A DNA stretch of 64,000 nucleotides from the NCBI GenBank assembly GCA_963665525.1, contig OY762280.1, forward strand, positions 2,241,451 through 2,305,450, read 5' to 3'. The notes beneath the pieces were generated by a model. That model was not told the DNA's origin. It was given only the letters and a program-made list of their open reading frames with translations, and ran no database searches. This stretch comes from Bacteroidales bacterium. Lineage in GTDB: Bacteria; Bacteroidota; Bacteroidia; Bacteroidales; UBA12077. A program made the position numbers and the translations under genes. How positions within the stretch are numbered: position 1 is the stretch's first letter; each line of letters opens with the position of its first letter. Shown here piece by piece: positions 33,621 through 64,000 of the stretch.

Positions 33621-34010
33621 ATGAAACTAAAAAAACAAGTTACCCCAAGAAAAATTTATTCCTACGCTTTCAAGAAAGAAGTTGTTCAGGAATATGACAA
33701 TGGACAAATCTCTAAAAGAGCTTTAGCTATTAAAAATCAAATAAATCCTTCGACTTTAGACCGTTGGATTGAAAAGTATAGTATCTTAGCCAGAAACAAA
33801 CAAATGGCTGAAAAACACTCAAATGATCCCAAACACAAAGTAAAACGCTTAGAGAAACGAATTGAAGAACTGGAAGCTATGCTCGAAATTGATGACATGG
33901 CCTGGGAAATCATGGAAGAAATGACTGGTGACCCTAACCTGCGAAAAAAGCATATTCCCGAATCGCTGATAAAAGCATTGCAAAAAGCACGAAAAAGTCG
34001 TTTAAAATAA
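33621..34010 (+). CDS. IS3 transposase OrfA (HTH)
   Basis: The protein is 129 aa. A helix-turn-helix-like N-terminus is followed by a leucine-zipper-like KVKRLEKRIEELEAMLE. The slippery heptamer A AAA AAG lies in the zero frame at 33944..33950. Confidence 0.88.
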   Translation: MKLKKQVTPRKIYSYAFKKEVVQEYDNGQISKRALAIKNQINPSTLDRWIEKYSILARNKQMAEKHSNDPKHKVKRLEKRIEELEAMLEIDDMAWEIMEEMTGDPNLRKKHIPESLIKALQKARKSRLK

Positions 34011-34099
34011 CCCTTATATGCAAGCGGTTTGGGATTAGCAGACAGGCATTATACAAAAAGTTACAAAGAACTAATGAAGCTTTATCACAACACCAAATT

Positions 34100-34891
34100 G
34101 TGATAAAGCTGGTGCAACAAATCAGATATGAACAACCATTCATAGGAACTGAAAAGCTCTATGGATTAATTAAACAAGACTTACAAAAAATGAACATTAA
34201 AATTGGAAGATGCAAGTTAAACAGCATCTTAAAAGAGTATGGAATGCTGGTTAGAAAACGCAAGAAAAATGTTATTACCACCAACTCTCACCATCGGTTC
34301 AGGAAATATCCTAACCTTGTGAAGAATATGGAAATCACTAAACCTGAACAAGTCTGGGTTGGTGACATCACCTATGTTAAAACCGACCAGGGTAATAATT
34401 ACTTACACTTGCTTACAGACGCTTATTCGAAGCGTATTGTTGGTTTTGAGTTATCGGATAACCTGAAGGCAGAATCTACTTTAAATGCCCTTAAAATGGC
34501 TCTAAAAGGGCGGAAATACCCTGAAAGAAAACTAACACATCATTCGGATCGTGGAATCCAGTATTGCAGTGATGATTATATTCAAGTGCTCATGGATAAT
34601 CATATGTTAATTAGCATGACTGAAAACTCTGATCCCTACGAAAATGCCATAGCTGAAAGAGTAAACGGAATACTTAAGTATGAGTTCTCCATCGGCGAGG
34701 GTTTTAAAAACCATGCTTCTGCCCTATCTGAAGTAAAAAAATCTGTGTTTATTTATAACACCCGAAGACCCCACAGAAGCTGTAAAATGCTTACTCCTGA
34801 AAATGCTCATCTGAATGGAAAATATAAACTTCCATCCTATTCTATCAAATTGAAAACAAAAAATGAATTATCTTTAACAAAAAACTGCTAA
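34100..34891 (+). CDS. IS3 transposase OrfB (DDE/rve catalytic domain), expressed as OrfAB by -1 frameshift
   Basis: The frame is open upstream to 33938 and overlaps orfA. Upstream translation ...ICKRFGISRQALYKKLQ is the usual second HTH. Catalytic motifs are WVGDITY, HSDRGIQY and NAIAERVNGILK. Confidence 0.88.
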   Translation: MIKLVQQIRYEQPFIGTEKLYGLIKQDLQKMNIKIGRCKLNSILKEYGMLVRKRKKNVITTNSHHRFRKYPNLVKNMEITKPEQVWVGDITYVKTDQGNNYLHLLTDAYSKRIVGFELSDNLKAESTLNALKMALKGRKYPERKLTHHSDRGIQYCSDDYIQVLMDNHMLISMTENSDPYENAIAERVNGILKYEFSIGEGFKNHASALSEVKKSVFIYNTRRPHRSCKMLTPENAHLNGKYKLPSYSIKLKTKNELSLTKNC

Positions 34892-48729: not shown

Positions 48730-48757
48730 ATATAAAAACCTCTATATTTTTTTCAAG

Positions 48758-48781
48758 CCTATCAGAAATTGATAGGTTTTT
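48758..48781 (+). terminator. Rho-independent terminator after the S9 peptidase gene
   Basis: The stem CCTATCA / TGATAGG is 7 bp with a 5-nt loop, followed by TTTTT. Confidence 0.7.
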
Positions 48782-48843
48782 ATGTTTTAAAATATACATC
48801 ATAATTTAAACAAATCTTCGATTAATTACTTACATTTGCTACC

Positions 48844-49037
48844 TAATTGGTCTCAACATCCATTTTTTTTTAGTGGAATGAGTTAAAAGGGAATGCTGTG
48901 ACTTGTCTTTGTTAGATAGGAATTCGGCAACAGTTCCCGCTGCTGTGATGGCTATTCAATGTTTTAACAATATGTCACTCTTTAATATAGAGGGGAAGGC
49001 GTTAAAACAGGCCTAAGTCAGAAGACCTGCCAATTAA
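48844..49037 (+). promoter_or_regulatory. Cobalamin (AdoCbl-type) riboswitch
   Basis: P1 candidates are AATTGG (48845..48850) / CCAATT (49030..49035). Conserved core elements are AAAAGGGAATGCTGTGA and ACAGTTCCCGCTGCTGTGA. The B12-box-like AGTCAGAAGACCTGCC matches the consensus AGCCAGGAGACCTGCC. It is followed by corrinoid-uptake-type genes. Confidence 0.85.
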
Positions 49038-49155
49038 ACATAGATTTTGTAGCCTGCGGAGAACAGGTAGCTAATCAATACGATGCTTCATTGGCCATCC
49101 TTCATATCGTATGCTGCAAAATCAAGTTATGAACTCAATTAAAATTGCAGTAACG

Positions 49156-49734
49156 ATGAAAAAAACAAAAATTCATTTACGTTTTGGAGTACTTTCACTT
49201 TTGGTTTTAATGGCTGCTTTTAGCCGATTAATACAACATCCTCCTAACTTCGCACCTATTGGAGCTATGGCTTTATTTGGAGCAGCATATCTATCTCAAA
49301 AGCATTTTGCTTTAATTATTCCGATAGTCTCCATGTGGCTTAGCGACTTAGCTCTTAATAATATTGTGTATGCGCAATATTTCGATCACTTTGTTTGGTT
49401 TTATCAGGGGTGCTACTGGACCTATGGAGCATTTATTGTAATTGGCTTTATCGGATTTGGATTACTTAGAAAAATCAAAATTACTAATATCCTGTTAGCT
49501 TCTTGCCTGGCTTCAGTTAGCTTTTTCATCTTATCTAATTTTGGTGTTTGGGCATCTGGAACAATGTACCCAAAATCACTTTCAGGACTTATAATGTGCT
49601 ATACTGCCGGCTTACCATTTTTAAAAAATACATTTATGGGTGATCTGGTATATTCCGGGATCTTATTTGGGATATTTGAAATAGCAAAGTACCATTTCCC
49701 TGTATTACAATTACAAAAACAGAATATAAAGTAA
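49156..49734 (+). CDS. Small polytopic membrane protein, candidate inner-membrane corrinoid transporter (DUF6580-like, from memory)
   Basis: The track ORF begins at 49111; MKKTKIHLRF at 49156 is more plausible. It has about 5-6 TM segments and the motif HPPNFAPIGAMALFGAAY. It is the first gene after the riboswitch. Confidence 0.7.
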   Translation: MKKTKIHLRFGVLSLLVLMAAFSRLIQHPPNFAPIGAMALFGAAYLSQKHFALIIPIVSMWLSDLALNNIVYAQYFDHFVWFYQGCYWTYGAFIVIGFIGFGLLRKIKITNILLASCLASVSFFILSNFGVWASGTMYPKSLSGLIMCYTAGLPFLKNTFMGDLVYSGILFGIFEIAKYHFPVLQLQKQNIK

Positions 49735-49813
49735 ACAATAGAGCGGCCATGTTCGCCAAAACCTCAGCCGCTCATAGATATAAAACAATCATTTATTTAT
49801 AAACAATTGCATT

Positions 49814-52800
49814 ATGAAACAAATTTACTCATTTTTATTAGTCTTTGTAGGACTAATTTTATTAGGGTTTAATTCTTACTGTCAGGAATTTACCCACAAA
49901 GAAGATTTAAACGTAGAACGGATACGCAGTTCTTCTGATTACAGAAAAACTGTAAAATTTGCCGATCTGTTTAATTTCCCGTCAGAAATTGATGTTAAAA
50001 GTGAAATTTCAACGAATACCGATATCGCAATCAATTTATCATCTACAAACGAATCAAATATTCTATTTGACGGATATTATTATTCTAGTTACAGTGGACA
50101 GTTTTTTTATTACAAAATTCCAGCAAATAGTTATGGTAAAGATACTCTAACAGTTACAATAACATATAATGGAATTGAAGCCATTTCTAAAGTTATAGCA
50201 GAAATTGATCCTATTAAATGTAAAGATGATGCATATGATATGGGTATAGGAGACACTCTGGAAGTTACTGTTACAAGTAATGATAATCCGAAAACCTTTT
50301 TTGATTATGCAAGTTTTGAGATTATTCAAAATGCAATATCAGGGACACATCAAATCAAAGGTGATGGAACAATAGAATATATCAACTCGGAAAGTACTCC
50401 AAATTATACCAGAGATACAATTATTTATCGTATTGCCGATACAAAATCTAACTACGATACAGCAATGGTAGTATTGAGCATCCATGAAGATTCATATGTT
50501 ACTAAGGTTTTTGATTACCTACCTGCTCCGGGTCAGTTTGTGAACACCTCCTGGGCAGATACGGCAGCAGGAGATAAAGTAATCGGCAATACCAGCGGTG
50601 GAGCTTCTCTCGGTGGTTTTGGTGGATATATTATTGTTGGTTTCGACCAACCAATTGTCAATTGTGCTGAAAATGCTTATGGAGTTGACTTTACAGTTGT
50701 TGGTAATGCTTTTTCCGGATGGGGAGAACCAGCCGCTGTAAAAGTTATGAAAGATGAAAACGGGAACGGGTTACCCGATGATGAATGGTACGAATTAGCA
50801 GGTTCTGAATACCATTTCTCATCTGCCATTAAAAATCTAACCATGACTTATTATAATCCTAAGTACAATGAAAGACATACAATTCCTTATTCTACTGACA
50901 AAGGATTCAATGGTGCCATGGGAACAAATGGATTTCATGCACAACAGTATTATCCTGATCCTGCAAGTTTTTGTATAAGTGCTGATTCAGTAAGTTATGA
51001 CGGTACTTTCTCTAAATTCCTTTTAGATAAAAGTAACCCAGGTTATATCACAGCTAAAAGACTTCCATTATTTGGATATGCCGATTCACGCCCTAGCAAT
51101 AGTACACCTACAAAACCACTTAATCCTTATGTAAATGATGAAAATGGTAAAGCTGCCGACGGATTCGATTTAGAATGGGCTATTAAGGCCGATGGTAGTC
51201 CTGCTAACATTGATACCGTGCATTTTGTAAAAGTTTACACTACTGTTCAGGAAGATGGTGGTTGGTTGGGAGAAATTTCTCCTGAAATTTTTAAAGTTGC
51301 AATTACAACTCCAGATCCTTCTTATGTACCACAAGATTATGAAGCTCATGCCATTGGCGCTTCTCAAATTCAGGTATTAAAAGGAGAAACATTACAATTG
51401 GAAGGTATATTATTTAAAAATGGTATCCCACAAAGCGGAAGTCAAACCTGGACATCAGATAGTAAACATGTAGCAACTATAGATAATACTGGTTTATTAA
51501 CAGCAATTGAAAACGGAAAAACAACTATCCACTTTAGTGTTAAAAGTGATGTTACTCCTGACTCTATTGATATTAATGTAGTTGAGCTTACAGAAGTTGT
51601 TATTGAACTTGAAGGTAACTCTTCGGTTTCTAACGATACCATTTTTGTTATAGAAGGAGAAACAGAATATATTCACGCTGAAGCAATTGACAACAGACCA
51701 TCTCCTGCAAATCGATTTGTTTACGAAAGTTTTAACTGGTCATCATCAGATAACTCTGTTGGAACTATTGACCAAGGAATATTTAATGCTAAAGCAGTTG
51801 GTACAACTATGGTTATTGCTGAATCAGTTCATAACCCTCTACTAAAAGATACAATTATTACGGTTGTTACAAAGGCTCCTGAGATTGTTGCTGTAAAAGA
51901 TACCGTTTTATTGCCTTACTATAGCAGATCAGGATCTTTCACAAACGATGAGCTATTTTCTACAGGAGTGAATGCTATCGTAACTATTAAGTCAAAAGCG
52001 AGCAGTTTTTCAATTATGAATTCGAATATCGTAAACAACACTTTTGAGTATGATGTTCTGGAAAATAAATATGGTTTTGAAACCATTGAATTTACCGTTG
52101 AAGCATTTGGGGTAGAATCAACTATAGAAATTGTTTTTCAGGCTGTTGAGCCTGATAACTTTGAGACTCCAAAGCAAGTTCTGTTTACAAATGGCGGTGA
52201 GTTTATGAATCCTAATGCTCCTACCGAACTAATGACATATATTCCTGATCAGGATACCACAATTCAGATTGATAATTACCTTGCAGGAGCTACATCTGTT
52301 CAGGATATGATTATTGATGGTAACTTTGCATATGTATCAGCAGATTACTATATCACCAGATATAATGTTTCTTCAAGAACTGCTACTGATTCAATATACA
52401 CTCAGGATTTAGATCCTAATAGTGCAGATGGTCAGGGAACTGAAATGGCAGGAGTAAATCACAAATTAGCTATTTACCAAAATATGTTACTGGCAACACG
52501 CCAAAACAGTGCTCAAGCACCAGAAGATGGATATAATGTAAGAATTTACAATAAAGGTGATTTATCCTTTATTAAGAAAATTCCTGTATCTAATCAGGCT
52601 ACCGACATTGTAATTGTTAATGACACGGCTTATGTTATGATCAACGGTGGTTTTGCCGGTCAAACAAGCTCTATGGCAATTATCGACTTAAAAACATTAA
52701 CCCTCAATAGAGAAGTTGATCTTGGTACTGCCGGACTTGGTGTAATGCAAATGATTGCTAAAGACAACAAAATCTATTGTGTCAGACTTGCTGATTTTAT

Positions 52801-54928
52801 GGGTCGTTTTAACTCTGGAATTGTTATATATGACATAACATCTGGTGCTATTCAGGAAGTTGAATATACATCAGGAATCCCTTACGATTCATCGCCACTG
52901 GCAATTGAGCCATGTACAAACGACACTATTTTCATTAAAAAAGATCTTGGTTATGTTGCATTTAACACACAAGACCAAAGTTTTGGAAGTGAAACACATA
53001 TGAATATTCCATCATATTATAACCAGGATAGCGATCATATTGGCCGAAGTTCTGCTTATGATCCTGATGAAAAGAAATACTATATAACTTATGCATACTG
53101 GCATGGTAAAGGTGTAGGTCAGGTTTATGATAGTAATCTTGATAGTATTGGTACATTTAAAGGTGTTGGTGCATCTCCTGAAGTTATGAAAATATGTCAA
53201 GCATCTGTAATAAATGAGAAACCATATACTTGCTCTGCTAATTCACCAAAAACATACAATGAAGGTGAAGACTTTAAATTTAGATTATCTTACTCTACTT
53301 TTAAAGATAAAGAGGATAATTACCCAAGCATGTACTTGTATAATCCTGCTCAGTACGAATGGCTATGTTTTGATTCAAAAACCCGCTACATTTCAGGAAA
53401 TTTTAACGCAGAATTAGAAGAATCAAAAACTTTTAATGTTATAATGCAAGGAATAGACAAGCAAGGTGCGTTTGTTCTCGATACAGTTAAAATAACAATC
53501 AATCCTGTAGATGATCCTATGACATTAGAAAAATTAATTTCTGATATCACAGTGGATGAAGATGCTGCTGACTCACTGCTTACATTAACTGAAACATTTG
53601 TTGACGTTGATAATATAATCAGTACAAGAATAATAGCTAATACAAATTCAACTCTGATAAATACAACAATCAGCGAAAATGTATTAACTATCCATTTCAA
53701 CGTAGAACAAAATGGTGAAGCTGAAATCATTATAGAAGCTGAATCAAATGATGTAACTTTAACTGATACATTTAATGTTTATGTAAGGCCAGTAGATGAT
53801 GCTCCTTATGTTGTAAATTCAATAGCTGATGTTACAGCAAACGAAGATGAAAGCATTGCTGCCATTGACTTAACTAATGTATTTGATGATATAGATAACG
53901 ACAATTCAGCCATTACTAAAGAGATTATTAGTGTAACTGATGAAAGTTTACTAACCATGAACATTACAAATAATCTTCTAAACATTGAGTTAAAAGAGAA
54001 TCAATCAGGTGAACTGGAAGTTATTATCGAAGCTACATCAAATACATTAACAGTAACTGATACGTTTAATATTACTGTTAATGCGGTTGATAATGCACCG
54101 GTTGTTGTTCATTCAATAACTGATATCACAGCAAACGAAGATGAAAATATTACTGATATTGATTTAACAAATGTATTTGACGATATTGACAACGATAATA
54201 CTGCCATAATAAAAGTTGTTAAAAACATTTCGAATACAAGCCTGTTAAATGCCGAAATCAATGATAATAATTTATCAATCGCACTACTTGAAAATCAATT
54301 TGGAGAATCTGAAATTGTTATTGAAGCAACTTCAAATGGTTTATCGGTAACAGATACATTTAATATTGCAGTGAACGCTGTAAACGATAAACCGGTTGTT
54401 GTTGAAACAATCGAAAATGTAACTGTAGATATGAATGCTGCAGATTTACAAATCGATTTAAGTAATATATTCGATGATATCGATAGCGATGATCTTGAAA
54501 TTACAATTAGCAATAATACAAATGAAAGCTTAGTAGAAACTTCAATCTCAGAAAATATACTAAGCTTATCATTTGTTCAGGATCAACACGGAACAGCAGA
54601 ATTAACTGTTACTGCAAACGATGGAACAGCATCTGTAAATACATCATTTAACGTTACAGTAAACAATACTGCAACCGGATTAGAAAATATTGAGAATATT
54701 ACGCTCAAAATTTATCCTAATCCTGTTCAGGAGATTATAAACATAGATTGTGAATTTGGTATGGAACGCGTTGTTATATTTAACAGCATTGGAAATATCC
54801 AAAGAATAATCAATCCTGAAAATATCAATTATTGTAAAATAAATGTTTCTGGTTTACCATACGGTACTTATTTCTTAAGTATTGAAGGTAAGAACAACCG
54901 AATTACTAAAACAATTATTAAACAATAA
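49814..54928 (+). CDS. Giant T9SS-sorted surface protein.
   Basis: The protein is 1704 aa with a signal peptide. Domains in order are a cadherin/Ig-like N-region, a shared unassigned domain, BIG2-like domains, a BtuG-like beta-propeller region, four cadherin-like repeats and a T9SS CTD. YLPAPGQFVN...WYELAGSEY is homologous to the next gene. BIG2-like VATIDNTGLLTAIENGKTTIHFSV is present. VLFTNGGEFMNPNAPTELMTY parallels [19 protein letters not shown] of the 59484 gene. The C-terminus LKIYPNPVQEIINID...GTYFLSIEGKN...IIKQ is a type-A T9SS sorting domain. Confidence 0.85.
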   Translation: MKQIYSFLLVFVGLILLGFNSYCQEFTHKEDLNVERIRSSSDYRKTVKFADLFNFPSEIDVKSEISTNTDIAINLSSTNESNILFDGYYYSSYSGQFFYYKIPANSYGKDTLTVTITYNGIEAISKVIAEIDPIKCKDDAYDMGIGDTLEVTVTSNDNPKTFFDYASFEIIQNAISGTHQIKGDGTIEYINSESTPNYTRDTIIYRIADTKSNYDTAMVVLSIHEDSYVTKVFDYLPAPGQFVNTSWADTAAGDKVIGNTSGGASLGGFGGYIIVGFDQPIVNCAENAYGVDFTVVGNAFSGWGEPAAVKVMKDENGNGLPDDEWYELAGSEYHFSSAIKNLTMTYYNPKYNERHTIPYSTDKGFNGAMGTNGFHAQQYYPDPASFCISADSVSYDGTFSKFLLDKSNPGYITAKRLPLFGYADSRPSNSTPTKPLNPYVNDENGKAADGFDLEWAIKADGSPANIDTVHFVKVYTTVQEDGGWLGEISPEIFKVAITTPDPSYVPQDYEAHAIGASQIQVLKGETLQLEGILFKNGIPQSGSQTWTSDSKHVATIDNTGLLTAIENGKTTIHFSVKSDVTPDSIDINVVELTEVVIELEGNSSVSNDTIFVIEGETEYIHAEAIDNRPSPANRFVYESFNWSSSDNSVGTIDQGIFNAKAVGTTMVIAESVHNPLLKDTIITVVTKAPEIVAVKDTVLLPYYSRSGSFTNDELFSTGVNAIVTIKSKASSFSIMNSNIVNNTFEYDVLENKYGFETIEFTVEAFGVESTIEIVFQAVEPDNFETPKQVLFTNGGEFMNPNAPTELMTYIPDQDTTIQIDNYLAGATSVQDMIIDGNFAYVSADYYITRYNVSSRTATDSIYTQDLDPNSADGQGTEMAGVNHKLAIYQNMLLATRQNSAQAPEDGYNVRIYNKGDLSFIKKIPVSNQATDIVIVNDTAYVMINGGFAGQTSSMAIIDLKTLTLNREVDLGTAGLGVMQMIAKDNKIYCVRLADFMGRFNSGIVIYDITSGAIQEVEYTSGIPYDSSPLAIEPCTNDTIFIKKDLGYVAFNTQDQSFGSETHMNIPSYYNQDSDHIGRSSAYDPDEKKYYITYAYWHGKGVGQVYDSNLDSIGTFKGVGASPEVMKICQASVINEKPYTCSANSPKTYNEGEDFKFRLSYSTFKDKEDNYPSMYLYNPAQYEWLCFDSKTRYISGNFNAELEESKTFNVIMQGIDKQGAFVLDTVKITINPVDDPMTLEKLISDITVDEDAADSLLTLTETFVDVDNIISTRIIANTNSTLINTTISENVLTIHFNVEQNGEAEIIIEAESNDVTLTDTFNVYVRPVDDAPYVVNSIADVTANEDESIAAIDLTNVFDDIDNDNSAITKEIISVTDESLLTMNITNNLLNIELKENQSGELEVIIEATSNTLTVTDTFNITVNAVDNAPVVVHSITDITANEDENITDIDLTNVFDDIDNDNTAIIKVVKNISNTSLLNAEINDNNLSIALLENQFGESEIVIEATSNGLSVTDTFNIAVNAVNDKPVVVETIENVTVDMNAADLQIDLSNIFDDIDSDDLEITISNNTNESLVETSISENILSLSFVQDQHGTAELTVTANDGTASVNTSFNVTVNNTATGLENIENITLKIYPNPVQEIINIDCEFGMERVVIFNSIGNIQRIINPENINYCKINVSGLPYGTYFLSIEGKNNRITKTIIKQ
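53504..54666 (+). repeat. Four in-frame tandem repeats (285/294/294/~290 bp) encoding cadherin-like ~98-aa modules
   Basis: Repeat starts are at 53504, 53789, 54083 and 54377. The modules share VDDAP.VV..I.D.TANEDE....IDLTNVFDDIDND...I...............N.L.I.L.ENQ.GE.E..IEATSN.L.VTDTFNI.VN. Confidence 0.85.
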
Positions 54929-54941
54929 TACCTAATTTCTT

Positions 54942-54966
54942 TACCGGGATCAGATTGATCCCGGTA
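54942..54966 (+). terminator. Strong intergenic hairpin between the two T9SS cargo genes (terminator/attenuator or RNA-stability element)
   Basis: A perfect 10-bp stem TACCGGGATC / GATCCCGGTA has a 5-nt loop, followed by ATTTTC. It lies 14 nt after the stop codon. Confidence 0.5.
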
Positions 54967-54990
54967 ATTTTCATTTAAAATCTTCACGGA

Positions 54991-57426
54991 ATGCGATCTT
55001 TTATAACCATTATTCTGATCTTACTTCTAAAGCCATTATCAGGTCAGGAAATACTTAACAAACAAAAAACAAAAGATGGAATTTTTGTTTCCCGGATTAT
55101 TGAATATAATCCGGCACCCGGCCAGTTTATCAATACTTCTGCCTGGGGAACACCTGACAAAGCAGAATCAATTATTGGTGGAGTAAGCGGAGGAATTAGC
55201 CTTGGTGCTTATGGAGGATATATTATTGTTGGATTTAATAAATCGATAGAAAATGATCCTGAAAATCCTTACGGAATTGATTTTACTGTCTTTGGAAATC
55301 CTCTGGAAGAATGGTCCGAACCAGGAATTATTATGGTTATGAAAGATGAAAACCAGAATGGCATTGCCGACGACACCTGGTACGAAATTATTGGTAGCGA
55401 TCATTACTGGGAATCTACCGTACACAACTACTCTCTTATCTACACTAATCCTAATAGCGATGTTGCCGCTGATGTAGAATGGATCGATAACAAAAATGAC
55501 TCAGGTTATGTTTATGCCAACGAATTTCACTTGCAGCCTTATTATCCTTCTGCCGATTTATTCCCTGATATTAACCAGGAAAGCTATGGTTTTTCAGGAA
55601 CTCGTATCAAAGGATTTGTAGACAATACCATCCCTACTTACATAATGTCTTTTCGTCGCGGATTTGGTTATGCCGATAACTTCCCCAGGGGAACAGCTCC
55701 CTACGATGTACCAAACAATCCTTATACTCCCGAAAAAGAAGGATGTGGAGGCGATCCTATCGACATTGACTGGGCAGTAGATTCGGAAGGTAACCCTGCG
55801 AATCTGGATCAAATCGACTTTGTAAAAATTTATACTGCCATAAACGAAGAAGCGGGCTGGCTAGGCGAAGTGTCAACCGAAGTTACTGCTGTTATGGATG
55901 TTACTCCCAACCCTTCAATAACAGGCGAAGAAAACCTGTTTGTGGTTAACGATCTTCCCCCACAAATTAGCGCCGGAACCACAATTAAACTTGAAGCTAA
56001 CTTTTTTATAAAAGGAAAAATACAAGACACCGAAAATATTGAATGGACTGTTGATAAGCCTCTAAAAGCAAACATTGATGAAAATAACTATTTAACAGTT
56101 ATTGATACAGGTACTATTATCGTTACTGCAAAATATAATCATGGAACAACTTACATAAAAACCATAACTACCGACATTATTGCTCCTGATAAAATAATAT
56201 TAGATATTGATCAAAATGAATTAAGAGTTGGCGATACACTTAGCATTGAATCAAAAGTAATGGATCAAAACGGAAATTATTTTTATGGCTTAGAAAATAT
56301 CTGGAGTAGTTCCAACGACAATATAAGTATCGAACAAAACAACAATAATTACTACATCCAAGGCAAAAAAGAAGGAACATCAAAATTATATGTTCATCCT
56401 AAAGGTTTTGAAAATATTAAAGATTCTGTCGAAATCACCATATTAAAAGCACCTGATAAAATCCAGGTTTACTTAAGCATTAAATCAGATAAAGCAACAA
56501 TATATCCAAGAACTAAGATTGAAATTACCAACTTTAATTTAAACCCATTTATTACTGATCCAATCCTGGATTATGGATTACAAGACATACCAACTATTAC
56601 ACTTGCTCATGTTGTAGCTTCCGTATTTGAAAATATTGAATTTGAAAGCGATTTACGTTTTACTGATAAGCCTGAAGGAAACTTATACATCGCACAGCTT
56701 CCTGTCAAATCTGATAATAACATTTTATACTATTACGGTTCGGGAGGATATGATCATAATGCCTGGATTATAAAACACAATAACAATAGCTATTTAAATA
56801 GCTTTGCAGATATACAGGTATCTGAAAACGATGAAATAGTAGTTTATTATATTGAAAATATTCATTCTCCGTGGTGTATTTATCATGCTAATTTTATAGA
56901 AACAACCACCGAAACAGGAAAAATACTTGATATAAGCGCTTCGTGTAATTCATACCAATATGAAAATTCGGTAATCATAAGTAATGGAATTACTCCAGCA
57001 GTATCCGTTCCCGTTTTTGTAAATGATGAAAAATATTCTGAAAATGGAAATATCATATTAACTGACAATAATGGGAATGTACATCTTCATTTCAAATATA
57101 CCGGTGATTATATTGTACGAATTGCTACCGAAAATTATCATTTAATCGTAGAAAATGGACTTACTGGTATTGAAGACATAAATACCTCCGTTGAAGTATG
57201 GCCAAACCCGGCAAACAAGTACATCTCAATTAATACCAATAATTCTGCTACTGAATCAATAGATATTTTAATATACTCCATCACGGGGGTTTTAAAATAT
57301 CAACATCGTTTTCAAATATTTACTAAAACAACGATCAATACGGATAAGTGGAATAACGGGATTTACTTTATTCAAATAAAAATCTCTGATAAAATAATTA
57401 GCAAAAAGATCATCATAAATCATTAA
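54991..57426 (+). CDS. T9SS-sorted surface protein: shared unassigned domain, BIG2-like domains, T9SS CTD
   Basis: The protein is 811 aa with a signal peptide. YNPAPGQFINTS...GGYIIVGF...YGIDFTVFGN...MKDENQNGIADDTWYEIIGSDHY is paralogous to the 1704-aa protein. The C-terminus VEVWPNPANKYISIN...GIYFIQIKISDKIISKKIIINH is a T9SS CTD. Confidence 0.85.
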   Translation: MRSFITIILILLLKPLSGQEILNKQKTKDGIFVSRIIEYNPAPGQFINTSAWGTPDKAESIIGGVSGGISLGAYGGYIIVGFNKSIENDPENPYGIDFTVFGNPLEEWSEPGIIMVMKDENQNGIADDTWYEIIGSDHYWESTVHNYSLIYTNPNSDVAADVEWIDNKNDSGYVYANEFHLQPYYPSADLFPDINQESYGFSGTRIKGFVDNTIPTYIMSFRRGFGYADNFPRGTAPYDVPNNPYTPEKEGCGGDPIDIDWAVDSEGNPANLDQIDFVKIYTAINEEAGWLGEVSTEVTAVMDVTPNPSITGEENLFVVNDLPPQISAGTTIKLEANFFIKGKIQDTENIEWTVDKPLKANIDENNYLTVIDTGTIIVTAKYNHGTTYIKTITTDIIAPDKIILDIDQNELRVGDTLSIESKVMDQNGNYFYGLENIWSSSNDNISIEQNNNNYYIQGKKEGTSKLYVHPKGFENIKDSVEITILKAPDKIQVYLSIKSDKATIYPRTKIEITNFNLNPFITDPILDYGLQDIPTITLAHVVASVFENIEFESDLRFTDKPEGNLYIAQLPVKSDNNILYYYGSGGYDHNAWIIKHNNNSYLNSFADIQVSENDEIVVYYIENIHSPWCIYHANFIETTTETGKILDISASCNSYQYENSVIISNGITPAVSVPVFVNDEKYSENGNIILTDNNGNVHLHFKYTGDYIVRIATENYHLIVENGLTGIEDINTSVEVWPNPANKYISINTNNSATESIDILIYSITGVLKYQHRFQIFTKTTINTDKWNNGIYFIQIKISDKIISKKIIINH

Positions 57427-57434
57427 AGGATAAA

Positions 57435-59453
57435 ATGAGACGACTACTTTTCATATCAACTTATATTTTAAGCAGCACCATATTACTTGATGCACAATCA
57501 GTAACAGATACTATTGCGATTGAAGAAGTAAGGATTGTTGCCAACCGGATATTCATAAAAGAAGAAGCAGGGCAAAAAATTTCGGATGTAGATTCTGTTG
57601 TCTTGTTAGATAAACTAAACCAGAATCTTTCGGATGTATTATCCGAGAATACCTCTGTTTACATTAAAGAACATGGACGCGGAGCATTAGCAACAGCATC
57701 GTTTAGAGGAACTGCTGCCACACATACACAGGTTTTATGGAATGGAATGAACATTAATTCCCCTATGTTAGGGATGGTAGACTTTTCGCTTATTCCTGTG
57801 TATGTTATTGATGATTTAAGTTTAAATCATGGAGGAAGTTCTATTAAAGAACAAAGTGGAGGTTTAGGAGGAAGCATAAATATTAGCAATAATGTCGATT
57901 GGAATAATCGTTTTAGTGGCCGCTATTACCAAGGCATTGGAAGTTACTCAACGTTCGATGAGTTTGGCCAGGTTAACATTGGAAATAAAAAAATACAATC
58001 CAAAACTCGTATCTATTCTAACGCATCAAAAAACGATTACTCTTTTATCAACAAATCTATTACCGAGCGTCCTGAAGTTAAAAATGAGAATGCCGATTAT
58101 TCCAAATATGGATTTGCACAGGAAATCTATCTTAGAGCACACAAATACGATTACATTTCTCTTAAAACATGGGGACAACTTGCTCAACGGTCACTTCCAA
58201 CAGTTCAGAGTTACGAAGGTGCTGATCAGGCTAATTTAAACTCACAAGACGATAATACATTTAAGGCTGTTGCCGCTTGGAAACATTATGGCAGCAAGAG
58301 TAAAATCTATTTTACTTCTGGGTACGACTACCAATCCCTTGATTATATACTTGAAAATGAAGTTAACAGCATTGGCAAAGTTCCTGCAATTTATTCCGAA
58401 AGCATTATGCAAAGCATTCATAGCAATGCAAAATATGATTACAACTTTACTGAGAATTTTCAATTTAATTCATCGCTTAATTATAAGCATTACAATGTTA
58501 ACACCAAAGATTCGGTATTAAAAACCGGGTATAATGTTATACGAGATGACTTTTCGGTATTCGGAGGATTCTACTTAAACCTTTTTAAGAAATATAATAT
58601 CTCCTTAATGCTTCGAGATGATATTGTTGATTATAATTTATCCCCTTTAATATTTAATTTGGGTATTAGCTATAAGCCTTTTTCAAATACCGATTTAGTA
58701 ATTAAAGGGAGCCTTGCAAGAAATTACCACCATCCTACGCTAAACGACTTATACTGGCAACCTGGAGGTAATCCTGAACTAAAAGCAGAAGAAGGATTTA
58801 CCGAAGATATTACCATTATTTATTCTTTTGATAATGGCAGAACTCATGTAAGTAGCGAAGTAACAGGTTTTTACTCCGATATTAACAACTGGATTATTTG
58901 GTTGCCAAGTTTTAAAGGATACTGGGAACCATTTAATATTAAAAGAGTGAAATCTTATGGTTTGGAATATAACTTTAAAGTAACTAGCCATATTCAAAAA
59001 TTAAATATCCAATTACAAGGAAACTACGGCCTTACAAAATCATTAAATTATGGCGATCCCTTAACCTGGGGCGACGAATCATATAAAAAGCAACTACCAT
59101 TTATTCCTGTGCATTCCGGAAACTTTTTAACGCAACTAAAATACCAGGGATATTATATACGATATCAATTTAATTCTTATAGCGAAAGATTTACCATGAC
59201 CAGTAATAAAGTAGGGCTCGAAGATGATTCTGGTGATTTAGGAGTAAGTCAAGATGCTGGAAAATTAGGCTGGTACTATCCCTATTATATGAGTAACCTG
59301 ACTATAGGAAAAGAACACGACATTAAAAAATATACCCTGGGAGTAGAACTAAAAATTAACAACCTGTTCGACGAAGAGTATCGTTCGATATTAAACCGAT
59401 ATATGCCAGGCAGATATTATACCTTATTACTAAAAATCTCTTTCAAAAAATAA
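57435..59453 (+). CDS. TonB-dependent outer-membrane receptor, BtuB-like
   Basis: The protein is 672 aa with a signal peptide and a TonB-box-like DTIAIEEVRIV. The plug has SFRGTAATHTQVLWNGMNINSP and a 22-strand-sized barrel follows. It lies in a riboswitch-headed cluster 8 bp after the preceding gene. Substrate is inferred from context. Confidence 0.8.
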   Translation: MRRLLFISTYILSSTILLDAQSVTDTIAIEEVRIVANRIFIKEEAGQKISDVDSVVLLDKLNQNLSDVLSENTSVYIKEHGRGALATASFRGTAATHTQVLWNGMNINSPMLGMVDFSLIPVYVIDDLSLNHGGSSIKEQSGGLGGSINISNNVDWNNRFSGRYYQGIGSYSTFDEFGQVNIGNKKIQSKTRIYSNASKNDYSFINKSITERPEVKNENADYSKYGFAQEIYLRAHKYDYISLKTWGQLAQRSLPTVQSYEGADQANLNSQDDNTFKAVAAWKHYGSKSKIYFTSGYDYQSLDYILENEVNSIGKVPAIYSESIMQSIHSNAKYDYNFTENFQFNSSLNYKHYNVNTKDSVLKTGYNVIRDDFSVFGGFYLNLFKKYNISLMLRDDIVDYNLSPLIFNLGISYKPFSNTDLVIKGSLARNYHHPTLNDLYWQPGGNPELKAEEGFTEDITIIYSFDNGRTHVSSEVTGFYSDINNWIIWLPSFKGYWEPFNIKRVKSYGLEYNFKVTSHIQKLNIQLQGNYGLTKSLNYGDPLTWGDESYKKQLPFIPVHSGNFLTQLKYQGYYIRYQFNSYSERFTMTSNKVGLEDDSGDLGVSQDAGKLGWYYPYYMSNLTIGKEHDIKKYTLGVELKINNLFDEEYRSILNRYMPGRYYTLLLKISFKK

Positions 59454-59483
59454 CATCAAGGAAACGATAAAAACTATAATACA

Positions 59484-60611
59484 ATGAAAAAATATCTTTT
59501 CATATTCATTATAAGCACACTAATTTATTCATGTATGGAAGATGATGAACTTACCGAGTTTAATAAGCTTGAAGTAAAACAAGATTCATCGCTTACCGAT
59601 TATATCAGAAATCAACGGGGTGTTTTTATTACCAACGAAGGCAATTTCATGTACGATAATGCTTCTCTCTCCTATTACATGATTGATTCGATGAAAAACC
59701 TGAATAATGTATTTTTCAGAACAAATGCTGTACCATTGGGAGATGTTGCCCAATCTATGACTATTAGGGACTCTTTAGGTTATATAGTGGTCAATAATTC
59801 CGGGAAAGTATATGTAATTAATATTCACACATTTGATTATGTGGGTAAAATTACCGGATTAACCTCTCCCCGATATATTCATTTTATCAACGATCAGAAA
59901 GCATATGTCACTGATCTTTATGCAAAATCAATTGCTATCGTAAATCCGCAAACATTTCAAATTACTGGTTCTATAGACGTTAATAATCATTCCACTGAAT
60001 TTTACCAACACCCTACCGAGCAAATGGTACAATACGATAAATATGTATTTACCAATTGTTGGTCGTATGATAATCAAATTTTGGTTATCGACACAGAAAC
60101 AGACCAAGTAGTTGATTCCATTAAAGTACTTAAACAACCCACTTCGCTGGTTCTTGATAAATACAATAAAATATGGACAGTAACCGACGGTGGTTATTAT
60201 GGCAGTCCTTATGGACACGAAGCTCCCGGACTAATCTGTATTGATGCAGTAACACGTAAAGTAGAGAAAATTTTCAGATTTGAATTGGGCGATTGGCCAT
60301 CTGAAGTATGCTTAAATGGTACTAAGGATACACTTTATTTTATTAACCGTCATATATTCCGATTACCGGTTACTGCTTCCATATTTCCCAATGATCCTTT
60401 TATTGAAAGTCATTATGAAGGAAACTATTCCGGTGGATATTATGGATTAACTGTTGATCCGGTAAGTTCCGAGATTTATGTAGCTGATGCCATAGATTAT
60501 GTCCAACAAGGTGTAACATTCCGTTACTCACCTCAAGGTGAACCGATAGATACCTTTAAGGTAGGTATTATTCCTGGTGCATTTTGCTTTAAACCAAGCA
60601 ATAAAAAATAA
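59484..60611 (+). CDS. Surface lipoprotein, BtuG-like / YncE-like beta-propeller
   Basis: The protein is 375 aa with lipobox LIYSCMEDD. The motif [19 protein letters not shown] and repeated blade-like segments ([17 protein letters not shown]..., IWTVTDGG..., IYVADAIDY) are present. It sits directly after the BtuB-like receptor, as btuG does in Bacteroides. Confidence 0.7.
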
Positions 60612-60653: not shown

Positions 60654-63600
60654 ATGAAAAAACCAATTACACTCATTTTATTGAGCTTATTCTCGTTGTG
60701 GCTATATGCCGAGAACGAAAAAAATCCATCGAAAGCAGTTTCTGCTTTTCCATGGGTAGAAAGCTTTGAAGAAGCCACCTTCCCTCCTGAAGGCTGGACA
60801 ACAGAAACAGAAGATGCCAGCGGTGATGGCTGGGAACAAAACAATGGATCAACATACGGTCCAGGTAATGTTCCTGATGGCACATATGCTGCAATGGCTG
60901 ATGTTTACAATATTTCCAAAGATCTAACAGCTAAACTTAAAACACCTGTGTTGCAATTAGGAAGTTTATCAAGTCCTAAACTTAAGCTTTTATGGCAGTG
61001 TACCGATGGTTATAGTCAAGATCCTGTTTTTGTAATTAAAATGTCAACAGATAATGGAGTCAGTTATAATGAAATATATAATCAGACTGCTGATGGATTT
61101 GCCAATGACTGGGTTGAAATTGACATAGAACTAACAGGAGCCACTGATGAAACAATACTTTCTTTTGAAGTTATTAGCGATTATGGCAGTAAAAATTTAT
61201 TTATTGACAATGTAAAAGTTTATGAGCCAGCTCCTATGCAGTTTGTTTCTGCAGAATCATTTCAAAATAATTCAAATGTTATTTCCATAGGTAGCACGAA
61301 CAATGATATTGTTGGTATTAATGTTAAAACTCAAGGTGCTTTAAATAAACTATCCATAAGTGATTTTAACTTTAGTTTTGATGGTACAACAGATTTAAAC
61401 GATATTACCAGGGCTCAACTATTCTATACTGGAAGCTCGAATTCCTTTTCTACATCAACAGCTTTAGTAGAAACAAGCACCATTCAAAATACCATTACCT
61501 TAAATGGGAACACCGAACTGGCAGAAGGGAACAATTATTTTTGGCTGGCGCTAGACATTAGCCCCAGTGCATTATTAGATAATGTAGTCGATGCCAGCTA
61601 TTCGCAAATTACGATTGGAACAGATAATCATGCAGTTTCTGCTCCAAACCCTGATGCAAACAGGCAGCTTAAGAAAATACTGAACATGCCCTCAGGAACA
61701 AATACGGTTACCGTTAACGAAAATCTTGTTTTTTACGATGATGGTGGTGAACTGGAAAAATATTCTGAAGGATTTGAAGGTACTATTACATTTGTTCCTA
61801 ACACCAGTGGCAAAGCCATTAAAATTGAATGGGATAATTTCGAGATCTTTAATACTTCAAGTACTGGTAACAATGATATTTTTAAAATTTACCAGGGATC
61901 AACCACTGATGAAGCCCATTTAATTGACACTTATTCAGAAATGCCTCCTAGTATTTATTCTATGGATGCCAACGGTACAATCACGATTTATTTTAAAGTA
62001 AACACAGGAGTTCCAAAAGAAGGATGGCAGGCTCTGGTTTCTGAATTTACTCCGTCTAACATGAGTTATGTTGAATCAAATATATTACAGGAAGTCACTA
62101 ATGTTGTTTCTGCCTCTGAAACTGATGCTCAAATGCTAAAAATCGAGATAGAAACTGTAAATACACTTAATCCTTTATCTACAGGAGATTTTGTCTTCAA
62201 CACATCCGGTTCTTCCGATGCAGGGGATATTGCTAAAGCTAAATTATATTATACAGCCAACAAAGATGTATTTAGTACTGCAAATTTTGCTGGTGAACAA
62301 AACTCACCAAATGGAGAATTTACTATTACCACAAATCAAGAGTTAAAAGTAGGTAAAAATTATTTTTGGTTGGTTTACGATCTAACGGATATGGCAATCC
62401 ATGATAATGTTGTAGATGCTTCATGTACTTCAGTGAATGTTGGAGGAACAAGTCAGGTTCCTACAACAACATCACCTGACGGTAATAGGAACATCGATAA
62501 TACTTATAGGATGCCTACATCGGGTACACCCACAAAAACTATTGCTCAGGAAATTCCTTTTACCGACGACAACGAAGGATATGGAGGTAAATACTCCTAC
62601 GGTGCTAATTCGACCGTTACTTTTGTTCCGGCAAACAGCAACGAAAAAATAAAAGTTGATTTTTCTTCTTTTGATATATACTACTCAAGCTCAAGTTATG
62701 GTACAAAGGCTGTCTTTAAAATATTCAATGGAAATAGTACAGCATCTGCCGATTTATTATGGGAAGCCGATGAAACAAACTGTTCTGAAGGACCAGGTTA
62801 CATTGTTACATCAACCGTTGATAATGGTGCACTTACTATTCAGTTCGTTGGTAACACTTATACATCTACTTATACTAAAGCAGGATGGGAAGCAACATTA
62901 TGGAGTGAATTACCAAAAGACATGGAATTCAAATCAGCAGAAGTTACTCAACAATCAGGTGTTGTAAAACCGGGATCAATCGATCATCAACTACTGTCTA
63001 TTAACCTGAAAACCTCCGGAACATTAAATCCTGTAAATAATACCATATTTACTTTTAACACGAATGGAACAACTCAAGCTATTGATTTAAGTGCAGCCCG
63101 ATTATACTTCACCGGTAAAAACAACGCTTTTTCTACAACCACTCCGGTAGGCACAGAAGTTTCAGCTCCTGAAAATGACTTTAGTTTTACATGTACTAAT
63201 TCTCTTGAAGAAGGTAATAATTACTTCTGGTTGGTTTACGACATCTCATCGGGAGCTACTATAGACAATACCGTTGATGCTGAACTTAATAAAGTTCAAT
63301 TAATGGATTCGGAGCATATTATTAATAATGGCGCACCTGCAGGAAACAGTATCATTAAGAATATTTACAATCTTGAATCTGGGACAAATACGGTATATAT
63401 CAACGAAACACCATTGCAATTTTTCGATGATGGTGGTCAAACCAATAAATACTCCAAAGATTTTAACGGAACGGTATCTTTCATCCCTGAAGATAATACT
63501 CAAAAGGCTCGTTTAAGCATAAGCAGTCTTCAATTCTATAGCATGGACAAAATTTCGGTTTATAATGGTACTGGAACAGAAGATGAGAATTTGATTCGTG

Positions 63601-64000
63601 AAATAGATGGTGATGAGAACATAACAAATTCTGACGAGCCATATGTATTTAAATCTACTGCCGATAATGGCGAGTTAACAGTAGTATTTAAAAGTTACTC
63701 TTGGTCGACACCTAAAGATGGATGGGAAGCTACTGTTCAAAGCTTTATACCACAGCCAATTTTTTATAAAGATGCAGCGGTTGATCAAGCCAATTCCAAG
63801 GCGGTAATTAAAAATGAGAGAAATGCTGAAATTCTTCAGGTAAAACTAAATTTTGGAGGAGAAACAACTCCTGCGAATATTACAAACTTTAAGTTTAATA
63901 CCAGCTTAAGTTCTGCAAATAGCGATATTGCTAATGCAAAACTATATTACTCTGATGAAATTAATACTCTTAATGTTGTAGGTAATGAGCTGATAGGAGA
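60654..64000 (+). CDS. Very large modular secreted protein, N-terminal >1100 aa (runs off right edge)
   Basis: My own translation from ATG 60654 gives MKKPITLILLSLFSLWLYAENE... with no stop to position 64000. That is why it is missing from the ORF track. The N-terminal FPWVESFEEATFPPEGWTTE...FIDNVKVY resembles the cleaved-adhesin/choice-of-anchor-J type. At least 3 repeats of a two-domain unit follow (...G.NYFWLVYD......DN.VDA... then a CUB-like ...F.DDGG....YS..F.GT..F.P........GW.A). Confidence 0.8.
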   Translation, partial: MKKPITLILLSLFSLWLYAENEKNPSKAVSAFPWVESFEEATFPPEGWTTETEDASGDGWEQNNGSTYGPGNVPDGTYAAMADVYNISKDLTAKLKTPVLQLGSLSSPKLKLLWQCTDGYSQDPVFVIKMSTDNGVSYNEIYNQTADGFANDWVEIDIELTGATDETILSFEVISDYGSKNLFIDNVKVYEPAPMQFVSAESFQNNSNVISIGSTNNDIVGINVKTQGALNKLSISDFNFSFDGTTDLNDITRAQLFYTGSSNSFSTSTALVETSTIQNTITLNGNTELAEGNNYFWLALDISPSALLDNVVDASYSQITIGTDNHAVSAPNPDANRQLKKILNMPSGTNTVTVNENLVFYDDGGELEKYSEGFEGTITFVPNTSGKAIKIEWDNFEIFNTSSTGNNDIFKIYQGSTTDEAHLIDTYSEMPPSIYSMDANGTITIYFKVNTGVPKEGWQALVSEFTPSNMSYVESNILQEVTNVVSASETDAQMLKIEIETVNTLNPLSTGDFVFNTSGSSDAGDIAKAKLYYTANKDVFSTANFAGEQNSPNGEFTITTNQELKVGKNYFWLVYDLTDMAIHDNVVDASCTSVNVGGTSQVPTTTSPDGNRNIDNTYRMPTSGTPTKTIAQEIPFTDDNEGYGGKYSYGANSTVTFVPANSNEKIKVDFSSFDIYYSSSSYGTKAVFKIFNGNSTASADLLWEADETNCSEGPGYIVTSTVDNGALTIQFVGNTYTSTYTKAGWEATLWSELPKDMEFKSAEVTQQSGVVKPGSIDHQLLSINLKTSGTLNPVNNTIFTFNTNGTTQAIDLSAARLYFTGKNNAFSTTTPVGTEVSAPENDFSFTCTNSLEEGNNYFWLVYDISSGATIDNTVDAELNKVQLMDSEHIINNGAPAGNSIIKNIYNLESGTNTVYINETPLQFFDDGGQTNKYSKDFNGTVSFIPEDNTQKARLSISSLQFYSMDKISVYNGTGTEDENLIREIDGDENITNSDEPYVFKSTADNGELTVVFKSYSWSTPKDGWEATVQSFIPQPIFYKDAAVDQANSKAVIKNERNAEILQVKLNFGGETTPANITNFKFNTSLSSANSDIANAKLYYSDEINTLNVVGNELIG

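Follow-up and report, generated by a model that had tools for sequence, protein, structure and literature searches.

The scavenging of cobamides is one of the main fields on which members of microbial communities compete, and its mechanism is known almost wholly from gut Bacteroides, which to our knowledge are without a type IX secretion system (T9SS) and use lipoproteins. The known cargo of the T9SS comprises proteases, glycanases, adhesins and haem-binding proteins such as HBP35. The described system nearest to the one treated here is the Btu 'extracellular relay' of Bacteroides thetaiotaomicron, in which the accessory binders are all lipoproteins and import takes place via BtuFCD (PMC13616437); in the btu loci of this species a 5' riboswitch has been documented to place the whole operon under B12 control (PMC10404256, PMC13616437). 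A second point of reference is BtuM of Thiobacillus denitrificans (6FFV/8OVV), and when this protein was described the gap presented by organisms that carry BtuB without BtuFCD was noted (PMC6072759). How does the present locus compare? It lies in a 64-kb stretch of DNA (the window, to which all statements on gene content refer) from a Bacteroidales bacterium of the GTDB lineage UBA12077 (assembly GCA_963665525.1, contig OY762280.1, positions 2,241,451 to 2,305,450 of the forward strand), where a cobalamin riboswitch is followed by genes for a small membrane protein, two large T9SS cargo proteins, a BtuB receptor and a BtuG lipoprotein. We hold it probable, with some confidence, that this cluster serves an environmental Bacteroidales bacterium with a T9SS as an operon for the capture and import of cobamide (vitamin B12).

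A first-pass annotation had read from the letters of the window a cobalamin riboswitch heading a small polytopic membrane protein, two T9SS-sorted proteins of 1704 and 811 aa, a BtuB-like receptor and a BtuG-like lipoprotein, with btuFCD missing, and family and structure searches bear this inventory out. The riboswitch aptamer (48831-49048, + strand) matches the Rfam family RF00174 over the full model (positions 1-189 of 189) with 98.8 bits, where the gathering score is 31.5, and E = 1.8e-23, so that the start formerly given as 48844 falls inside the aptamer. This is the sole Rfam family match in the window, which holds no second riboswitch, and all elements of the cluster stand 3' of it on the + strand. 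The first gene (49156-49734, 192 aa) encodes a polytopic membrane protein of the family DUF6580 (Pfam E = 2.7e-55) and is separated by 79 nt from the gene for the first cargo protein, here called T9A (49814-54928, 1704 aa). After a further 62 nt comes the second cargo protein, T9B (54991-57426, 811 aa), then, after 8 nt, the TonB-dependent corrinoid receptor BtuB (57435-59453, 672 aa) and, after 30 nt, the surface lipoprotein BtuG with its DUF5074 beta-propeller (59484-60611, 375 aa).

The assignment of the last two proteins is straightforward. The receptor matches BtuB2 and BtuB3 of B. thetaiotaomicron (8BMX_C, E = 3.9e-109; 8P98_A, E = 2.4e-104) and has a plug domain, and the lipoprotein is closely related to BtuG2 (E about 1e-130; 8BN0_A, E = 5.4e-130) and to BtuG3 (E about 1e-118), with a Pfam DUF5074 domain at E = 1e-23. 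Its lipobox Cys17, as read from the translation, is followed by an acidic stretch (C-MEDDE) in the pattern of the Bacteroides surface-export signal, comparable to CSDDDE in BtuJ1. A BtuB-type TonB-dependent transporter therefore adjoins a DUF5074/BtuG lipoprotein, as in a BtuBG system, and relative to the BtuB-BtuG complexes of gut Bacteroides (PDB 8BMX, 8P97/8P98) the two proteins are orthologue-level relatives, adjacent and in the same order. The locus departs from the gut BtuBG loci in two ways, in that (i) it is without btuFCD and (ii) its accessory binders are T9SS cargo rather than the lipoproteins BtuH, BtuJ, BtuK and BtuL. When the open reading frames (ORFs) of at least 100 aa in the window were scanned for Pfam and NCBIfam families, no FecCD permease, ATP-binding cassette (ABC) ATPase or Peripla_BP_2 protein of a btuFCD set was found, either in the cluster or elsewhere in the window.

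The most telling evidence lies in the two cargo proteins. These had been described as merely adhesin-like, a label that has to be given up, as each carries a predicted BtuH-type B12-binding domain with a conserved ligand pocket and T9A has a BtuG/YncE-like propeller in addition. In T9A the BtuH-type domain spans aa 230-499 (50501-51310, +), of which aa 230-495 match BtuH2 of B. thetaiotaomicron (7BIZ_A, E = 8.8e-38) and the BtuH part of BtuG1 (8BLW_B, E = 5.5e-36). In T9B it spans aa 30-305 (55078-55905, +) and matches 8BLW_B at E = 4e-42 and 7BIZ_A at E = 3.3e-38, and a profile of 118 T9B homologues strengthens these BtuH matches to E = 1.5e-70 and 3.1e-59. The AlphaFold2 model of T9B has a mean predicted local distance difference test (pLDDT) score of 88.3, and its top three Foldseek matches in the PDB are 8BLW_B and two 7BIZ chains, all with probability 1.00, the others being chains of immunoglobulin-like (Ig) domains. 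No Pfam model recognises the BtuH domain of either protein. The eight residues by which BtuH2 contacts its ligand (Q333, N399, F401, H476, Y510, W511, W577 and L578; PMC8941943) were mapped by alignment onto 120 T9B-family and 119 T9A-family proteins. Seven of the eight are identical in T9A and six in T9B, the exceptions being W511, which is Ile in both, and F401, which is Leu in T9B; across both families Q333, N399, H476, W577 and L578 are near-invariant. On the strength of this pocket the heads of T9A and T9B would be expected to bind B12.

The remainder of each protein is modular. T9A runs from a signal peptide through a Big_9-like domain, the BtuH domain, Big_2 Ig domains and the propeller to four cadherin-like repeats and a C-terminal sorting domain. 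The propeller, which is divergent (aa 780-1145; 52151-53248, +), aligns with the BtuG family in hhalign with a probability of 95.7% (E = 9.7e-9, 194 aligned columns), and a T9A-family homologue, P0189, has a genuine DUF5074 domain (E = 2e-107, aa 1060-1394). The four repeats of about 97 aa (53531-54703, +) are visible in the translation, match Cadherin_4 in three stretches (E = 1.4e-6) and are suited to a spacer or stalk; in the homologues P0127, P0136 and P0139 a DUF4465 domain (E about 1e-50) stands in their place. T9B consists of a signal peptide, the BtuH domain, two Ig domains, a conserved module and a sorting domain. Pfam scans of sub-fragments of both proteins, with hits accepted at E up to 10, yielded nothing further than Ig and cadherin domains.

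The module of T9B (aa ~486-722; 56446-57156) is conserved throughout the family, with an invariant Y, W and W and near-invariant GYGG, N and D-E motifs. Its aa ~486-660 were considered as a second B12 module of the transcobalamin-beta/DUF4430 type, and this found no support, PF14478 being weak and present in two of 15 members (best E = 0.036). A dedicated profile of 59 sequences gave nothing meaningful in the PDB apart from spurious L20 matches, and the Foldseek search with the whole T9B model, dominated by BtuH and Ig domains, brought out no relative of the module.

T9A and T9B resemble BtuH in having a homologous globular B12 domain (E from 1e-36 to 1e-42), of the same fold in the model of T9B, that keeps six to seven of the eight contacts, in lying within a riboswitch-controlled btuB-btuG locus and in having Ig-type spacers attached. 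They differ from it in their architecture, since BtuH, a lipoprotein, carries the matching export signal and has its B12 domain at the C-terminus, whereas T9A and T9B have a type I signal peptide, a B12 domain near the N-terminus and a C-terminal T9SS type A domain, and are 1.4 to 3 times larger than BtuH2. A parallel for T9A is BtuG1 of B. thetaiotaomicron (PDB 8BLW_B), which combines a BtuH domain with a BtuG propeller (PMC10404256), although T9A has these two parts in the opposite order and bears a T9SS sorting domain.

The evidence for T9SS sorting is found at both ends of the proteins. The type A C-terminal sorting domain of T9A (54710-54928, +) matches PF18962 (E = 3.9e-10, 40.3 bits against a cut-off of 27) and TIGR04183 (32.9 bits against 23), and that of T9B (57196-57426, +) does so at 45.9 bits (E = 7.3e-12) and 42.1 bits, respectively; the T9B family profile also matches T9SS sorting domains of solved structure, for example 8GLK_D and 8GLJ_D. 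The N-termini (...NSYC-QEF in T9A and ...LSG-QEI in T9B) have the look of type I signal peptides with a Gln next in line, and the combination of lipobox Cys and export signal that marks a surface lipoprotein is not found in either N-terminus as read from the sequence. With the signal peptide, Gln after the predicted cleavage, Ig-rich body and PF18962/TIGR04183 domain, both proteins look like type A cargo of the kind represented by gingipains, SprB/RemA-type proteins and hydrolases. The window also encodes the T9SS component PorD (22528-23427, - strand; NF052317 equivalog, 377.6 bits against a cut-off of 170), the remaining components being outside it. The porD gene sits in a conserved housekeeping stretch beside coaBC (23433-24638) and recN (20779-22434).

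Cargo with a type A sorting domain can be either attached to the cell surface or released, as is established from Porphyromonas gingivalis and Flavobacterium johnsoniae, and T9A and T9B would accordingly meet one of these fates, between which the sequence does not discriminate. Were they released, they would act as soluble corrinoid scavengers ('cobalophores') that are re-captured at BtuG, or as sequestrants that starve competitors. This idea gains from the finding that purified BtuG2 sequesters cobamides and suppresses competitors (review PMC13616437). Long stalks fit either fate, yet stalks of Ig and cadherin domains best suit a tethered head projecting through the surface layer, and off-rates of hours, as reported for BtuH-type proteins (PMC10404256), make a freely diffusing binder costly, so that release is a possibility to which we give distinctly less weight than to tethering.

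That the arrangement is not peculiar to one genome is clear from related loci. One genome per GTDB species was scanned for relatives of T9B, 293 stretches were found to encode one, and 80 loci were fetched. At least 100 homologues of about 805-810 aa are listed, conserved over the full length and almost all with PF18962, and their source names are only 'T9SS type A sorting domain-containing protein' or 'hypothetical'; the closest species-representative relative (83% identity) comes from locus L001, of a Bacteroidales metagenome-assembled genome (MAG). The 80 loci include MAGs labelled Prolixibacteraceae, Bacteroidales, Cytophagales, Chryseolinea, Fulvivirga, Lentimicrobiaceae, Mariniphaga, Draconibacterium, Sphingobacteriia and Chlorobiota, as well as the cultured strains Dawidia soli PWU37 and Tangfeifania diversioriginum DSM 27063. 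In every one of the 80 a T9B-family gene, whose product is either long (about 800 aa) or short (about 470 aa), stands immediately 5' of btuB, with btuG next wherever the contig extends, bar one or two loci (for example L029), and 4-nt gene overlaps are frequent. Rfam was run on 11 of these loci, all of which were positive for RF00174 (89-115 bits), and an nhmmer profile built from those hits was run on the whole set. Five loci have no upstream sequence, and each of the 75 that could be evaluated has a riboswitch upstream on the same strand (74 by the profile and one hidden by an over-called ORF start). In about 55 the T9SS cargo gene comes directly after the riboswitch, mostly at a distance of 70-140 nt, and in the remainder DUF6580 and/or further T9SS cargo stands between riboswitch and T9B. 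The comparison of riboswitch-linked T9SS cargo across Bacteroidota that the first-pass annotation had proposed therefore shows the arrangement to be common rather than singular: the layout of riboswitch, T9SS cargo, btuB and btuG is widespread in environmental Bacteroidota.

The intervening cargo is itself informative. Six such proteins combine a DUF4465 (BtuJ-type) domain (E = 1e-52 to 1e-55) with a T9SS sorting domain. With BtuH, DUF4465 and DUF5074 cargo all found, all three classes of Bacteroides surface binder with known structure occur as T9SS cargo in riboswitch-controlled btuBG operons. Relative to the BtuJ/DUF4465 lipoproteins (9FCT, 9I2L, 9HMU) the likeness is that related loci and T9A-family homologues hold strong DUF4465 domains in the same riboswitch operons; the difference is that the window proteins are without DUF4465, having cadherin-like repeats instead, and that the relatives fuse this domain to a T9SS sorting domain. 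The earlier proposal that T9SS cargo stands in for the accessory lipoproteins of gut Bacteroides is supported by these sorting domains and BtuH domains.

Two sets of loci show further variations on this theme. A 910-aa protein of L046 (7148-9880, +) joins a full DUF5074/BtuG propeller (E = 3.7e-91) to a T9SS sorting domain, and this T9SS-sorted BtuG paralogue lies between the riboswitch and a gene combining BtuH with a sorting domain, in a locus that has a normal BtuG lipoprotein as well. In L006 (15479-16432) and L010 (15471-16445), both from Cytophagales, lipoproteins of 317-324 aa that consist of BtuH only (…LHSC-QDSD and …LVGC-QETE) follow btuG, and since these loci also encode T9SS-sorted BtuH, both modes of anchoring coexist in one operon.

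It is against this background that another explanation has to be judged, namely that the giant proteins are general adhesins or S-layer-like proteins, with the BtuH-like domain a degenerate scaffold and the co-location with btuBG incidental. Most of the length of T9A and T9B is indeed made up of Ig, cadherin or beta-sandwich domains, the BtuH domain goes unrecognised by any Pfam model and a third giant ORF next to btuG has no B12 domain. A degenerate scaffold does not sit well, though, with ligand contacts that are near-invariant in about 240 homologues, nor incidental co-location with a riboswitch directly before the cargo in about 55 loci, cargo next to btuB in 80 of 80 and btuG nearly always following, while paralogous cargo bears the other two known B12-binding domains. 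We regard this explanation as very improbable.

How far does the riboswitch reach? The aptamer is followed by an expression platform of two conserved hairpins (49049-49158, +), the second of which pairs with the start codon of DUF6580. The leader from aptamer to start codon measures 107 nt, and the two hairpins are kept in the seven loci where DUF6580 comes first. In the RNAalifold consensus of these seven the ATG (columns 131-133) pairs with columns 78-76, with thin support from covariation because the sequences are closely related. The DUF6580 ORF has an alternative ATG upstream at 49111, and the conserved leader structure supports that at 49156 as the start. The start-codon hairpin fits a model of translational sequestration of DUF6580, a mode reported for Bacteroides B12 riboswitches (PMC13616437). 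Control of DUF6580 by the riboswitch is well supported and control of T9A probable. The gap between these two genes also contains a hairpin (49741-49773, +) with a 7-bp GC stem (GAGCGGC...GCCGCTC), a 19-nt loop and no T tract.

The view that one riboswitch serves the whole block holds best for this first gene, as a terminator-like hairpin (54941-54967, +) with a 12-bp stem and a T tract intervenes between T9A and T9B. It ends 23 nt before the T9B ATG, leaving no room on its 3' side for a separate riboswitch or an ordinary promoter. Eight related loci (L001, L002 and L004-L009) have a hairpin and U tract at the equivalent position that differ in sequence, and a GC-rich hairpin with a U tract sits just 5' of the T9B-family start wherever another cargo gene precedes; conservation of position with divergence of sequence in related loci marks the hairpin as a selected feature. 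This structure opens the way to a different account, in which the riboswitch controls only DUF6580 and perhaps T9A, the hairpin terminates transcription efficiently and another promoter, independent of B12, drives T9B-btuB-btuG. The stem and T tract, the recurrence in eight related loci and an expression platform that sequesters the start codon of DUF6580 and not those of later genes are all as such an account would have them. With only 23 nt available and no second riboswitch, transcripts of T9B must nevertheless either cross the hairpin or start within it, and because T9B-btuB-btuG are directly riboswitch-controlled in about 55 loci, B12-blind expression here would amount to a lineage-specific loss. 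Set on the same side is the T-rich tail of the hairpin, TAATTTTC, which weakly resembles the Bacteroidota -7 box, so that a promoter may overlap the hairpin. A sigma-70 promoter scan was uninformative (55 sites against 63 expected), its model not covering Bacteroidota promoters. Taken together this makes the restriction of the riboswitch to the first genes unlikely.

Returning to the reading of the cluster as a single B12 operon, T9B, btuB and btuG need to be expressed, and we infer that the hairpin is a partial terminator or an mRNA-processing or stabilising element that would set the ratio of upstream to downstream products. For the T9B family at large, the position of the riboswitch in the roughly 55 loci shows direct control; control of T9B-btuB-btuG in this genome, including read-through of the internal hairpin, would follow by extension.

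The second question concerns passage over the inner membrane. The absence of an ABC importer that had been claimed for the cluster stands in so far as btuFCD was not found, and the gap in import which this leaves is probably filled by the BtuM-like protein DUF6580. NCBI names this protein a 'putative transport protein', and a phmmer search against PDB sequences, BtuM included, gave no match at E up to 10. Its AlphaFold2 model (pLDDT 87) has seven predicted helices, and the best Foldseek match in the PDB is BtuM with hydroxocobalamin (8OVV; template modelling (TM) scores 0.57/0.61, E = 0.079), a modest match followed by ThiT, PanT, FolT and RibU, all of them S-components of energy-coupling factor (ECF) transporters. 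The likeness to BtuM extends to the small size (about 190 aa), the polytopic S-component-like fold and co-location with btuB in a locus without btuFCD. The differences are that the cobalt-ligating invariant Cys of loop L3 is absent from the DUF6580 consensus, that sequence similarity is lacking and that DUF6580 is a separate Pfam family found in Bacteroidota rather than Proteobacteria. The window protein does have a Cys in that loop (QGCYW), at a position where the family consensus shows Phe, and the family has a different near-invariant Cys148 together with invariant H28, D64, N68 and N69. With neither homology to BtuM nor the loop L3 Cys, DUF6580 is called BtuM-like here in fold and role and not a member of the BtuM family.

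The neighbourhoods of DUF6580 were surveyed in 80 metagenomic loci, 38 of which have a recognised B12-linked neighbour or riboswitch. An nhmmer riboswitch profile built from 12 related sequences, which misses divergent riboswitches beside DUF6580, was positive in six of 70 evaluable loci, and Rfam found cobalamin riboswitches in three of 13 further 'unlinked' loci; as the profile under-detects divergent riboswitches, the figure of about 50% for B12 linkage is a lower bound. Among the loci fetched for T9B, seven have DUF6580 as the first gene after the riboswitch, beside B12-binding cargo and btuBG. Individual arrangements include riboswitch-DUF6580-[DUF4465 + sorting domain]-btuB-btuG (L112), riboswitch-DUF6580-TonB-dependent transporter (L088) and DUF6580-cobT-cobS-cobC-btuR-...-btuB (L084). 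A recurring arrangement has DUF6580 directly 5' of a split B12-dependent metH and metF (L128 and about a dozen others). In L128 (6001-11187) the split metH comprises a 330-aa S-methyltransferase and an 890-aa pterin/B12/activation protein, followed by metF, and the same order is seen in L110, L118, L123, L129, L130, L148 and others, on marine and other contigs; the riboswitch profile detected none at these split-metH loci. In L098 an AdoCbl-II riboswitch (RF01689, 39.5 bits; 5232-5308, +) and not RF00174 lies 46 nt before DUF6580.

These neighbourhoods also bear on the notion that DUF6580 moves a related compound (a lower-ligand base, a cobinamide precursor or cobalt) or processes the corrinoid as a membrane-bound protein, with BtuFCD encoded elsewhere. 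The window is only part of the genome, DUF6580 does not conserve the defining cysteine of BtuM, its structural likeness to BtuM is modest and the cobT-cobS-cobC neighbourhood would suit a transporter of lower ligand or precursor just as well. Adjacency to metH and metF in marine loci, on the other hand, suits a need for the complete cofactor, the best match among ECF S-components is the cobalamin-specific BtuM, and the position first after the riboswitch, beside B12-binding cargo and btuBG, recurs in seven loci. We think this notion rather unlikely, if somewhat less so than restriction of the riboswitch to the first genes, and judge on modelled fold and genomic context that DUF6580 is likely to be the inner-membrane corrinoid importer in place of BtuFCD, with transport activity to be expected of it.

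How might the parts work together? At low intracellular cobamide the leader would be open and DUF6580, T9A, T9B, BtuB and BtuG would be made, while B12, once bound, would allow the start-codon hairpin to shut expression. T9A and T9B would pass first through Sec and afterwards through the T9SS, lose their C-terminal sorting domains and be either linked to the surface by sortase or released. The BtuH heads, carried on Ig and cadherin stalks, could then capture corrinoids at a distance from the cell and hand them to the BtuG lid on BtuB, in a manner analogous to the BtuH-to-BtuG-to-BtuB relay proposed for B. thetaiotaomicron (PMC10404256). BtuB would move the corrinoid into the periplasm, from where DUF6580, as a solitary ECF-S-component-like protein resembling BtuM, would carry it over the inner membrane instead of BtuFCD. 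The wider proposition, that the T9SS delivers a modular toolkit of B12 heads (BtuH-, BtuJ/DUF4465- and BtuG/DUF5074-type) on riboswitch demand and that the DUF6580 family replaces BtuFCD, strikes us as evenly poised between right and wrong.

A number of observations pull the other way and have to be set against this scheme. In the binding pocket, the residue equivalent to BtuH2 W511 is Ile or Val across both families, and those equivalent to F401 and Y510 vary in the T9B family, so that affinity or specificity may differ from that of BtuH2. The expression platform looks translational and acts on DUF6580, and control of the downstream genes would, by analogy with described cases, have to run through polarity or mRNA decay. 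The T9A-T9B hairpin is strong, and T9B-btuB-btuG may in this genome be under weaker riboswitch control or none. With regard to DUF6580, the match to BtuM (E = 0.079, TM about 0.6) is modest and unaccompanied by sequence similarity, the loop L3 Cys by which BtuM is defined is not conserved and around half of the sampled loci have no recognised B12 neighbour, many of these contigs being short.

The limits of the unit are clear on its 5' side. The neighbours there are dapF and the gene for an S9 peptidase, which family scans show to be unrelated to B12, and a terminator-like hairpin after the latter (48755-48779, +), formed by an 11-bp stem followed by TTATGTTTTA, marks the 5' boundary. On the 3' side the block had been closed at 60611; the ORFs listed up to that point are present, and the unit may extend beyond it, given that a third giant ORF (60654-64000, +) begins 42 nt beyond btuG and continues for more than 1115 aa until the window breaks it off. 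This ORF has three copies of a BNR_assoc_N repeat and CUB-like modules, and no B12-binding domain was found in the portion inside the window. A counterpart follows btuG in L001 and L004 (more than 2240 aa) and is absent after btuG in L005 and L007, and membership of the third ORF in the B12 unit is uncertain.

Elsewhere in the window, a sensor histidine kinase (31008-33212, +) has an N-terminal PocR sensory domain with PAS and GAF domains, the PocR domain having its best-known bearer in PocR, which regulates the Salmonella pdu/cob regulon. The sole mobile element noticed is an IS3-family transposase (33621-34891, +) split into two ORFs of 129 and 263 aa, which fits a programmed frameshift. In the region 413-13149 (-) lie SusC/SusD-like genes in two pairs, one at 2774-5770/1334-2755 and the other at 9973-13149/8531-9958, and behind each pair come genes for proteins that contain Calx-beta or are unannotated (413-1312, 6101-7474 and 7510-8502, -).

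The arrangement had been thought undescribed and appears to be so, in that full-text searches, with subscription-only papers outside their reach, returned no paper linking T9SS cargo to B12 or a cobalamin riboswitch and none mentioning DUF6580, and the literature searched holds no description of vitamin-binding, riboswitch-regulated T9SS cargo. A 2026 review only speculates that homologues of BtuH and BtuJ in Firmicutes may be secreted (PMC13616437). We rate the locus as a variant of a known system, in which the route of binder export and anchoring (the T9SS sorting domain), the size and modularity of the binders and the likely DUF6580 step at the inner membrane are new.

If the proposed scheme is true, these proteins would be the first class of T9SS cargo that is regulated by a micronutrient and captures a cofactor, thereby adding vitamin capture to the known roles of the T9SS, and a function is proposed for hundreds of proteins annotated only as 'T9SS type A sorting domain-containing protein'. 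DUF6580 would represent a new family of B12 importer and is nominated for the inner-membrane step of B12 transport that is unaccounted for in organisms with BtuB and without BtuFCD; such S-component-like transporters would also accompany B12-dependent methionine synthase, in marine Flavobacteriia-like genomes. Cultured carriers exist in Dawidia soli PWU37, Tangfeifania diversioriginum DSM 27063, Mariniphaga anaerophila and Lentimicrobium sp. S6. For the Bacteroidota of soil, sediment, sea and bioreactor, this would mean that the same binding domains as in the gut are put to use through another export and anchoring machine, as larger, stalked proteins under riboswitch control.

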